A stretch of 64,000 nucleotides of DNA from an uncultured bacterium (GTDB lineage: Bacteria > Fidelibacterota > Marinisomatia > SCGC-AAA003-L08 > GCA-2689995): assembly GCA_964529325.1 (NCBI GenBank), contig CAZGWH010000001.1:2872-66871 (forward strand), written 5' to 3'. Both the position numbers and the translations under genes were made by a program. Below, one piece after another: positions 8,957-11,720 of the stretch; the first letter of the stretch is position 1, and each line of letters starts with the position of its first letter. The notes under the pieces were generated by a model. That model did no database searches, was not told the DNA's origin, and saw only the letters and a list, made by a program, of their open reading frames with translations.

Positions 8957-9166
8957 TTATTTTAGTATAATCACTTTTTGTGATTGGGATGGTTTATTTG
9001 GAATAAATTTTACAAAATAAACTCCGTTTGGCCGACCGTTAGCAGACCATTCAACTACATGTGTTTCTGCGAACTTCAAACCTTGTGCGTCATAAATGAT
9101 ATCTAAAGCATTCAGAGCTACTTTTCTCGTACTCATACGGTTTATAGTCTTCAATTCAATCATCAT
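8957..9166 (-). pseudogene. Orphan fragment resembling a T9SS type-A/FlgD-Ig C-terminal sorting domain
   Basis: IYDAQG...HVVEWSANGRPNGVYFVKF....SQKVIILK matches the tail of FCB-type secretion C-terminal domains; no signal peptide or cargo domain. Confidence 0.55.
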
Positions 9167-9242
9167 TTCATTTCACAATTTCCATGAGACATATTTTAAA
9201 CTATTGCGAACTATACGAACAATACAAAGCTGAGCCTGTATG

Positions 9243-9261
9243 TTGAAATAGACTATTTCAA
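9243..9261. other. Perfect 9-bp inverted repeat (possible operator)
   Basis: TTGAAATAG-A-CTATTTCAA in non-coding DNA. Confidence 0.4.
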
Positions 9262-9470
9262 TGGCATCAAGAAAGCCTTTCAATCTATAGATTAAGTAGT
9301 TCCACAATCACATTATTTACAAGGCAATGCGAGTGTTAATCGAAGGATCATGAATAGTTAAGCGGATTATTTTCAATTAAAATTTAAATTCATCGCATTA
9401 TTAGAATAACCAAGTCAATCCAATTTTTAATTTAAAAAAATATTTCTTTTTTATTAATAATGAATGTCTT

Positions 9471-9488
9471 TATGTTACTAGTAACATA
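9471..9488. promoter_or_regulatory. Candidate LexA operator (SOS box)
   Basis: Perfect 18-bp palindrome TATGTTACTAGTAACATA ending 37 nt before the lexA ATG, just upstream of a TATAAA -10-like hexamer (9493-9498). Confidence 0.7.
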
Positions 9489-9525
9489 CGAGTATAAATT
9501 TTAATTAAATGTAAAAAGGACGAAA

Positions 9526-10125
9526 ATGTATTTATCTCCAAAAAAACAAAAATTTGTTAATTTTATTTTAGGATTCACTCATGCTAATGAAAGGCCACCA
9601 ACATTTGTAGAAATTATGAAGGGATTAAATATTAGTTCCCTTGGTACAATCCATTGGTATGTAACTGAATTAGAAAAAGAAGGTGTTATTAAAAGAACAC
9701 GAGGACATCAAGGGAAAAGAGCGCTTTCGATTTTAGAGCAAAATCTGAGAATTACTTTACCATTACTTGGTATTGTTCAAGCAGGATACCCTCTAGATGT
9801 ATTTGAAGATAATGAACAAATAGAAGTCCCTCCATCTTATTTAAATGAACATAATTTCGTATTACGAGTTCGTGGTGATTCTATGATAGAAGAACATATT
9901 CAAGAAGGAGATTTTATTATAGTTAAAGAATGTAAAACGGCACAAAATGGAGAATTAGTAATTGCATATATTAATAATGAAGCGACTTTAAAACGATATT
10001 ATTATAAAGAAAATCAAATTGAACTTCGCCCGTCAAATTCAAATTTTAAAATTATTTTTGTTAATCCAGAAGATGAATTTAGAATTGGTGGTACCGTTTT
10101 AAGTGTAATGCGTAATTATAAATAA
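9526..10125 (+). CDS. lexA: SOS repressor LexA
   Basis: N-terminal wHTH (RPPTFVEI), Ala-Gly cleavage site (IVQAG), catalytic Ser (VRGDSM) and Lys (ATLKR); AAAGGA SD. Confidence 0.92.
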   Translation: MYLSPKKQKFVNFILGFTHANERPPTFVEIMKGLNISSLGTIHWYVTELEKEGVIKRTRGHQGKRALSILEQNLRITLPLLGIVQAGYPLDVFEDNEQIEVPPSYLNEHNFVLRVRGDSMIEEHIQEGDFIIVKECKTAQNGELVIAYINNEATLKRYYYKENQIELRPSNSNFKIIFVNPEDEFRIGGTVLSVMRNYK

Positions 10126-10208
10126 TTTTAGTATTAATTGAATTCACTTTAAAATATTATTTTATTACTCATTGTTTTTATATTTAATAAACAAATTAGA
10201 GAGTAATA

Positions 10209-10526
10209 ATGAATATTTATGGTGAAAACTGCCATCGTTGTGATCAAAAAACTAGGCGAGTTAGAAAAAATAAACCCACATGTGGTCATTGTATTGCAAT
10301 ATTAGATTCTAGGCATGAAGAAATTAGAAATTGCCCCGTGGATAATTTTAAAATGAAAAAAGAGATTATTCAAAATATTATTTTAGATCGTTGCCCTAAA
10401 TGTTCTGGTCTTTGGTTTGATAAAAATGAAATTGAAGCATTTGAGGAATTAATAAACAAAGTTTCAAATGATGCAATTATTCATAAAATAATTAAAGGTA
10501 TTACACAGGGAAAATATGAAGAATAA
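10209..10526 (+). CDS. Zinc-finger protein (TFIIB-type zinc ribbon at the C-terminus)
   Basis: CHRC/CGHC pair plus CPVD...LDRCPKCSGLWFDKNEIE. Confidence 0.7.
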   Translation: MNIYGENCHRCDQKTRRVRKNKPTCGHCIAILDSRHEEIRNCPVDNFKMKKEIIQNIILDRCPKCSGLWFDKNEIEAFEELINKVSNDAIIHKIIKGITQGKYEE

Positions 10527-10532
10527 TTTTTT

Positions 10533-11330
10533 ATGAATCTAAGAAATAATTTAAAAACTATTATATTTGGTACAGATACTCCTCTAGGAAAATTATTTGA
10601 TATTATACTTATATTACTAATTTCTTTAAGTATTTTAGTTGTTCTACTAGATAGTATAGGTGAATTTAGAAATAAATATCAAAACATATTAAATATAGTT
10701 GAAGTTATATTTACATTACTTTTTACGATTGAATATATGCTTCGAATTTACTGTATTAAAAAACCATTTAATTATATTTTTAGTTTTTATGGAATAATAG
10801 ATCTATTAGCAGTGTTTCCTACATATTTAAGTTTTATCTTACCCGGCACAGAAGTGTTAGTTGTAATTCGAGTATTGCGTGTATTACGAGTATTTAGGAT
10901 ATTAAAACTTGCTCAATACATAAATGAAGCAGACTTACTAATTAAAGCACTTATTGCAAGTAAAAGAAAAATATTTATTTTTCTATTTGTAGTAATGAAT
11001 GTTGTAATTATTTTAGGATCTGTTATGTATTTAATAGAGGGTGAAAAAGCAGGATTTACAAGTATTCCTCGTAGTATATATTGGGCAATTGTCACTTTGA
11101 CAACCGTTGGATATGGTGATATTTCTCCAGAAACAAACTTTGGTCAATCAATAGCTGCCTTAATAATGATTATTGGTTATTGTATTATCGCAGTGCCCAC
11201 AGGAATTGTAACTTCTGAAATTAATTATGTTACATCACAGAAAAATAAAAAGGAGTGTAATAAATGTGGTGAAAAAGAATTAAAACAGACTTCCTTTTAT
11301 TGCAATAATTGTGGTATCAAATTATTATGA
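10533..11330 (+). CDS. Voltage-gated-type potassium channel (ion transporter family)
   Basis: S4-like RVLRVLRVFRILKL, selectivity filter TTVGYGD, C-terminal CxxC...CxxC. Confidence 0.9.
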   Translation: MNLRNNLKTIIFGTDTPLGKLFDIILILLISLSILVVLLDSIGEFRNKYQNILNIVEVIFTLLFTIEYMLRIYCIKKPFNYIFSFYGIIDLLAVFPTYLSFILPGTEVLVVIRVLRVLRVFRILKLAQYINEADLLIKALIASKRKIFIFLFVVMNVVIILGSVMYLIEGEKAGFTSIPRSIYWAIVTLTTVGYGDISPETNFGQSIAALIMIIGYCIIAVPTGIVTSEINYVTSQKNKKECNKCGEKELKQTSFYCNNCGIKLL

Positions 11331-11388: not shown

Positions 11389-11601
11389 TTAATTAGGTAA
11401 GATATTTTCAGCGATTGGGCCTTTATCACTTTCCCCCAATTCATATTCCACTGCTTGATTATCTGCAAGAGTTTTATACCCATCCATAATAATATTATTT
11501 ATATGTGCAAATAAATCTTTCCCACCATCTTCTGGAGTGATAAATCCATAACCTTTTTTATTATCAAACCACTTTACTGTACCTTTTAACTTTTCTGCCA
11601 A
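11389..11601 (-). CDS. Cold-shock protein (CspA family)
   Basis: GTVKWFDNKKGYGFI (RNP1) and DLFAH (RNP2); TTG start. Confidence 0.95.
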   Translation of the reverse strand: MAEKLKGTVKWFDNKKGYGFITPEDGGKDLFAHINNIIMDGYKTLADNQAVEYELGESDKGPIAENILPN

Positions 11602-11720
11602 GGCTTTTTCCTTTCGTTACATTTAATATACTAAAATAAGGGCATAATTTATTATTATTACTAATAACAATTCATATATTATTATTTTTATTTATAGTAC
11701 TTTATTTTAAAAATTAAACA

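Follow-up and report, generated by a model that had tools for sequence, protein, structure and literature searches.

A predicted direct-repeat LexA operator upstream of lexA in an uncultured Marinimicrobia genome and in its relatives

The stretch of DNA analyzed here, referred to as the window, is 64,000 nucleotides (nt) long (GenBank assembly GCA_964529325.1, contig CAZGWH010000001.1, positions 2,872 to 66,871 of the forward strand) and belongs to an uncultured bacterium of Candidatus Neomarinimicrobiota, the phylum also called Marinimicrobia, SAR406 or Fidelibacterota. It carries lexA, the gene of the SOS repressor, at 9526–10125 on the plus strand. Based on comparative sequence analysis, the 21 nt at 9473–9493 (+), which end 32 nt upstream of the lexA ATG, are very probably the operator by which LexA would repress its own gene, and this operator is a direct repeat rather than a palindrome. 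The original prediction had named a perfect 18-bp palindrome at this spot, TGTTAC-N2-GTAACA, as the SOS box of the lineage. The location appears to have been well chosen, whereas the definition of the motif did not hold, since a motif search in the lexA promoters of relatives did recover a conserved element at this place, but as a tandem direct repeat.

The genome that holds the window is 2.3 Mb in size, is divided into 118 contigs and has a GC content of 29.5%. The lexA loci of the phylum were collected and oriented by the lexA strand, and 31 distinct loci were examined for an upstream repeat. The phylum consensus is aCTTACGAG-(T/A/C)A-aCTTACGAG, in which both copies have the same orientation and recur with an 11-bp period. 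It was found no more than 400 nt upstream of lexA in 29 of the 31 loci, in every case on the lexA coding strand, and 486 nt upstream in a thirtieth. Aligned with 25 non-redundant lexA operators of relatives, the left copy in the window, tGTTACtAG (9473–9481, +), agrees with the consensus at six of nine positions and the right copy, ACaTACGAG (9484–9492, +), at eight of nine. The resulting 26-site alignment places the information in the two 9-mers, at 1–2.5 bits per position, and the spacer, TA in the window (9482–9483, +), has a low information content of 0.35–0.37 bit. CGAG is conserved in both copies, a pattern that cannot be explained by any palindromic axis. The right-hand CGAG (1.1–2.5 bits per position) is as conserved as any position of the element and lies outside any such axis; in the window it also lies outside the palindrome.

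A search of 401 genomes of the phylum for CTTACGAG-N3-CTTACGAG, allowing at most one mismatch and using the reversed pattern as a control, returned 146 matches in 140 genomes, compared to five for the control. There was typically one match per genome, adjoining lexA, and the spacers of the 146 sites included TAA, AAA, CAA, TTA, TGA and others. The search is specific only at zero or one mismatch, as two mismatches gave counts no better than the reversed control, and under this rule neither the window's own site nor that of a near-identical congener (G002) is among the 146. The period was characterized using direct repeats with at least two G/C over 56 lexA promoters at periods of 8 to 16, plus control regions. 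Perfect 8/8 direct repeats occurred at period 11 in 24 of the 56 promoters, at each other period in none or one, and in none of the control regions. Repeats matching at seven or more of eight positions numbered 41 at period 11 and at most five at any other. Taken together, the alignment and the phylum-wide counts identify the direct repeat, and not the palindrome, as the conserved element.

The protein encoded at 9526–10125 is a canonical LexA repressor of 199 amino acids (aa), and its gene is the only lexA in the genome, where recA is also present (C23:17009–18007). It matches the Pfam families Peptidase_S24 (PF00717, 9e-27) and LexA_DNA_bind (PF01726, 9e-6, above its cut-off). In the PDB, it has full-length alignments to solved LexA structures (3k2z, 3e-31; E. 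coli 1jhh/3jso, ~1e-21), and it can be aligned from residue 3 onward, through the N-terminal winged helix, with the LexA structures of T. maritima and E. coli. The catalytic features pointed out in the original prediction are all in place, as Ala86-Gly87 (VQAGYP), Ser119 (GDSM) and Lys156 (TLKR), in motifs that align with 3k2z. Its recognition-helix region was also correctly assigned, with SLGTIHWYV aligning with helix 3 of E. coli LexA, SPNAAEEHLKAL.

Divergent LexA families of the phylum that the main pattern does not match also contained tandem repeats of period 11 upstream of lexA, built on other cores. These cores were TTAGCGAG in family f10, ATTACGAG in f3, GTACGC(C) in f22 and f9, GTACACC or TATACACC in f24, and AATGTACG or AATGTTCT in f5, and family f27 (L092) contained AATGTTCGA-TA-AATGTTCGA. 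Across the families, the sequence of LexA helix 3 varies together with the repeat core. Specifically, the core TTACGAG occurs with SLGT(V/I)(N/H)WYV, TTAGCGAG with SVGTVSWY, GTACGC(C) with SKGTV(H/Y)KH, GTACACC with SN(F/Y)(A/S)(V/I)QKR, and GTTCGA or GTACGA with SLSTVxYHV. Of the indirect evidence at hand, this co-variation gives the best support for the view that LexA itself would be the protein reading the repeat.

The distribution of the operator within the genome was investigated using a position weight matrix (PWM) built from lexA sites and scanned over 4.6 million positions. Two sites stood out: the lexA operator, which was the top match at 23.3 bits, and TTATACGAGTAACTTTCGAGT at C5:39657, at 23.0 bits. 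The next match was intragenic and reached 16.2 bits, and no site of 20 bits or more occurred in 12 genomes simulated with a second-order Markov model. The second site is intergenic and lies 38 nt upstream of, and in the same orientation as, an imuB-like gene for a 386-aa Y-family polymerase-like protein (IMS/IMS_C), which is directly followed by a dnaE2-type gene for a polymerase III alpha subunit of 993 aa. The two genes form an imuB-dnaE2 mutagenesis cassette, which is a well-known target of LexA. As is usual for ImuB proteins, inspection by eye showed no catalytic acidic residues of the DinB type in the imuB product.

Upstream of recA, uvrA, uvrB, uvrD, ssb, ruvA, ruvB and recN of the same genome, we observed no full operator site, and the best PWM scores were negative; recA, uvrA, ruvA and ssb are genes at which the original prediction had proposed to look for its box. 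A lone half-site, ACCTACGAG (11.3 bits), lies approximately 120 nt upstream of recA (C23, start 17009) without a partner at 11 bp. It is probably due to chance, given that none of 30 recA promoters of relatives in the class carried the operator. In several families (L115, L118, L119, L124 and L133), a conserved element of approximately 21 nt was seen upstream of recA. It is unrelated to the LexA box, and its sequence is CCCCATATTACTATTGCAAGA on the recA strand and TCTTGCAATAGTAATATGGGG on the other; it may represent a promoter or a regulatory site specific to recA. A gene for an SOS-response-associated peptidase (SRAP, PF02586) at C5:43865–44548 (−), convergent to dnaE2, had no operator in its promoter.

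In relatives, sites away from lexA were found at translesion polymerase genes. The repeat lies 6–30 nt upstream of umuD-umuC at five loci (L038, L042, L049, L062 and L063) and upstream of imuB-dnaE2 at L039, L065 (same genus), L076 and L079, and the imuB-dnaE2 site of a congener is at G001:C4:20221. At a further six loci (L067, L068, L072, L075, L080 and L085), one operator heads a lexA-imuB-dnaE2 operon. These non-lexA targets are the canonical core SOS regulon. With sites at umuDC and imuB-dnaE2 and none in the 30 recA promoters, the regulon would consist of lexA plus translesion polymerases. In the window's genome it is predicted to be minimal, comprising lexA, possibly two genes downstream of it, and imuB-dnaE2 on another contig, and in relatives it would also take in umuDC, with recA and the uvr genes outside it. 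Some relatives (L081, L082, L083, L053 and L055) have a small open reading frame between the operator and lexA, whose expression LexA would then control. Judged by eye, they are of a GxxExxY type (…ESVYEEA…) or resemble four-helix bundles.

The placement of the operator relative to the promoter is consistent with repression. A TANNNT hexamer ends exactly 1 nt before the C of the first repeat in 21 of 26 lexA loci, and 14 of these 21 have TTGnnn 16–19 nt further upstream. The operator would consequently sit directly after the −10 element and over the expected transcription start, which would be a repressing position. In the window, the best sigma-70-like match is TTAAAA-18 nt-AATAAT (9432–9461, +), a weak match from a consensus scan only, which would place the transcription start approximately 5 nt before the operator. 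We propose that LexA would bind as a dimer, with each of its winged-helix domains on one copy of the repeat in a head-to-tail arrangement. Both domains would lie on the same face of the DNA, and the 11-bp spacing of the copies corresponds to one helical turn. In this position, just after the −10 hexamer and covering the transcription start, LexA would block RNA polymerase. DNA damage would lead RecA to stimulate self-cleavage of LexA at Ala86-Gly87, carried out by the Ser119/Lys156 dyad, and the operator would thereby be released.

The palindrome TATGTTACTAGTAACATA is present as described, read directly at 9471–9488 (no strand assigned) in the lexA promoter region, with its end 38 nt from the lexA ATG. 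Its 18 bp take in the left copy of the repeat, extend across the spacer and run 5 nt into the right copy. Perfect 18-bp palindromes as such are common in this DNA. There are 82 in the genome and three in the window, compared to 1.4 expected from first-order Markov simulations of the window, and 78% of the simulated windows contained at least one. Matches to TGTTAC-N2-GTAACA with up to two mismatches are likewise at background in the window (three versus 2.8 expected), and the significance of the site rests on its position, not on its symmetry. One of the two-mismatch matches, TATTACTAATAACA at 11656–11669, is intergenic and upstream of a cold-shock protein gene (11389–11601, minus strand); such matches occur at background frequency, and it has no score under the direct-repeat PWM. 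The window scan agreed with the earlier reading by eye that there is no second intergenic copy of the palindrome itself. Genome-wide, two perfect copies (the lexA promoter and C89:2943) and one copy with a single mismatch (C1:26883) were found, and the latter two are both inside coding sequence. An mRNA hairpin formed by the palindrome was considered and set aside, as the predicted fold is weak at only −3.6 kcal/mol. The AT-rich genome also contains two repeated, GC-rich perfect palindromes of 18 bp: AAGGGGACATGTCCCCTT in five copies (C2:90, C2:198, C26:9904, C27:28642 and C31:81) plus a variant (C10:47760), and GTCGTTACGCGTAACGAC in five copies (C15:33270, C78:1745, C89:2831, C97:103 and C99:11). 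Several of these copies are near contig ends, and they may be repeats of the repetitive extragenic palindromic (REP) type or associated with mobile elements.

Among the 146 phylum-wide operators, GTTAC-NN-GTAAC did not occur, and only 82 contained even the shorter TTAC-NN-GTAA. The first base of the spacer, which has to be T for the right arm of the palindrome, was T in 99 operators, A in 29, C in 17 and G in one. The palindrome is thus absent both from other repair genes and, except for the near-identical congener G002, from the lexA promoters of relatives, which speaks against it as the SOS box on the original prediction's own terms. The consensus repeat is itself self-complementary at six of nine pairs around an axis between alignment positions 12 and 13, and the window's site departs from the consensus at five positions (5, 6, 7, 12 and 19) that complete the symmetry.

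One could still suppose that LexA of this genus has switched to the palindrome, with two inverted half-sites, as its functional SOS box. The symmetry is perfect and located in the lexA promoter, each of the five departures creates or preserves self-complementarity, and the congener G002, whose LexA is 96% identical, carries the identical sequence. In addition, at a helix 3 position that is Asn in most relatives, the genus carries His (GTIHWYV). Yet a second congener, G001, has the same helix GTIHWYV and non-palindromic sites at both lexA (CTTACGAGTGACTTTCGAG) and imuB, and the only other strong operator of the window's genome, TTATACGAGTAACTTTCGAGT at imuB, is not that palindrome and fits the direct repeat; elsewhere in the genome the palindrome occurs only within genes. 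The centers of the TTAC-N2-GTAA half-sites would be only 6 bp apart, which is shorter than in the palindromic LexA boxes of E. coli (12 bp) and B. subtilis (8 bp). Moreover, this site was picked for being palindromic, and a survey of over 100 independent lineages would be expected to yield one case in which a palindrome already six-ninths complete is completed by chance. We therefore consider a switch to the palindrome very unlikely and treat the symmetry as apparently incidental, a by-product of substitutions in this genus's lexA copy of a partly self-complementary repeat. As a caution on method, a perfect palindrome in a lexA promoter need not be the operator.

If the direct repeat is real, it could in principle be read by a factor other than LexA, such as another damage regulator or a specialized promoter element, in which case lexA would be co-regulated and not autoregulated. 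Damage regulators other than LexA exist in other phyla, binding of LexA to the repeat is itself a prediction, and the constant orientation of the element and its fusion to the −10 hexamer could also fit a promoter-associated element. Against this, the element tracks lexA, being typically the only copy in its genome and directly upstream of that gene, and the remaining genes that it precedes are precisely those known as classic targets of LexA. Its core changes together with the LexA recognition helix, two identical 9-mers 11 bp apart do not fit −35/−10 geometry, and a LexA direct repeat starting with TTAC has been validated in Balneolaeota by electrophoretic mobility shift assay (EMSA). A reader other than LexA is accordingly judged quite unlikely. 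The suggestion that palindrome and repeat are chance features of an AT-rich promoter, without operator function, draws on the expected occurrence of perfect 18-bp palindromes in the window and on the background level of two-mismatch matches, and as an account of the site its probability is close to nil. For the direct repeat, it is effectively refuted by the phylum counts against the control, by the specificity of period 11 and by the second site upstream of imuB-dnaE2, with no such sites in simulated genomes.

Several observations weigh against an autoregulatory LexA operator in the window. The left repeat has C to G and G to T substitutions at two of the best conserved consensus positions, such that autoregulation in this genome may be weak or work differently. 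The sequence at the −10-like place is CTTTAT, and the sigma-70-like matches in this genome are weak and less clear than in relatives. One lexA locus, that of G049 (L010), had no repeat. The PWM was trained with the window's own lexA site included, although the imuB site was left out. Finally, the evidence that LexA reads the repeat is all comparative and comes from an uncultured lineage.

The predicted operator can be compared with known LexA boxes. That of the Alphaproteobacteria, GTTC-N7-GTTC, is also a direct repeat and has been reported for Acidobacterium capsulatum as well. It shares with the operator described here two copies in the same orientation, the 11-bp period and a location in promoters of lexA and translesion genes, and the repeat of family f27 is GTTC-N7-GTTC itself, although within the phylum the GTTC core is confined to this family and partly f5. 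It differs in its core, as 8–9 nt are conserved per copy here (TTACGAG/TTAC(G)) compared to the 4-nt GTTC, in the phylum in which it occurs, and with respect to recA, which is outside the regulon here. The box of the window and its phylum is a sequence variant of the direct-repeat class, not the GTTC motif proper. Direct-repeat LexA motifs in several lineages are referred to in PMC7739468 (its refs 51–53), where it is remarked that LexA recognition of direct repeats evolved several times. The same study established the Balneolaeota LexA box, TTACACA-N6-TTACACA (consensus TTACACATATTTTWTACATA), by EMSA and mutagenesis. An 11-bp period for this consensus was considered and ruled out by the sites listed there (e.g., TTACACATGTATTTTACATA), in which TTAC recurs at 13 bp. 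Balneolaeota is the sister phylum of Bacteroidetes (PMC8565304). Its box and the one described here are both direct repeats with TTAC at the start of each copy and a regulon centered on lexA and translesion polymerases; they differ in period (13 versus 11 bp), in the 3′ half of the repeat (ACA versus GAG) and in the regulation of recA and a SRAP peptidase in Balneolaeota, neither of which has a site here. Marinimicrobia are placed in the same Fibrobacteres–Chlorobi–Bacteroidetes (FCB) group.

The LexA box of Bdellovibrio is the palindrome TTAC-N3-GTAA, which has its tetranucleotides in common with the TTAC-N2-GTAA of the original prediction. It is a true inverted repeat with another spacing, an arrangement that is not conserved in Marinimicrobia. 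The classical palindromic boxes, CTGT-N8-ACAG in Gammaproteobacteria, GAAC-N4-GTTC in Gram-positives and TGTTC-N4-GAACA in Verrucomicrobia, are bound by repressors of the same family with S24 autoprotease chemistry, and autoregulation and translesion polymerases are common to these systems. Their half-sites are inverted rather than directly repeated, and none matches in sequence, in agreement with the earlier statement that the motif is lineage-specific and unlike these listed boxes. We found no LexA paper for Marinimicrobia, SAR406, Marinisomatota or Fidelibacterota in the searchable literature, nor any account there of the control of their DNA-damage responses, and TTACGAG together with LexA returned only primer matches. 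The 2021 Nucleic Acids Research survey of the SOS response in Bacteroidetes did not cover Marinimicrobia. The operator appears to be a new sequence variant of a known direct-repeat operator, in a phylum for which no LexA box seems to have been described before.

Downstream of lexA, on the same strand, are a Zn-ribbon gene (PF13453; 10209–10526) and a gene for a K+-channel-like membrane protein (10533–11330). A scan of window positions 9150–10250 for terminator-like sites found none. If co-transcribed with lexA, both genes would fall under SOS control. Elsewhere in the class, the lineage with the smallest streamlined genomes (family f7/genus g29, 0.7–1.1 Mb) had only weak LexA matches (E ~1e-12) without an operator match, which suggests that its SOS system was lost.

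In the dark ocean, Marinimicrobia/SAR406 belong to the most abundant of the uncultured bacteria. The repeat provides a first candidate SOS box and regulon for the phylum: lexA and the error-prone polymerase genes imuB-dnaE2 and umuDC, without recA or the uvr genes. Such a regulon fits the view of the control of translesion synthesis as the conserved core of the SOS response (PMC7739468). The motif enables the annotation of SOS genes in hundreds of metagenome-assembled genomes, and the series of cores with co-varying helices is a data set on how a dimeric repressor would read a direct repeat and on the co-evolution of operator and repressor. Within the phylum, the half-sites form the series GTTCGA, GTACGA, GTACGCC, GTACACC, ATACGAG, TTACGAG and TTAGCGAG, with fixed spacing. 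We tentatively raise the possibility, which we regard as somewhat improbable at present, that head-to-tail recognition at period 11 is one ancient and continuously evolving mode of LexA and not a set of independent inventions. If so, the alphaproteobacterial GTTC-N7-GTTC box would be one tip of a very large clade, and the phylum would offer a natural allelic series for the code by which helix 3 of LexA recognizes DNA.

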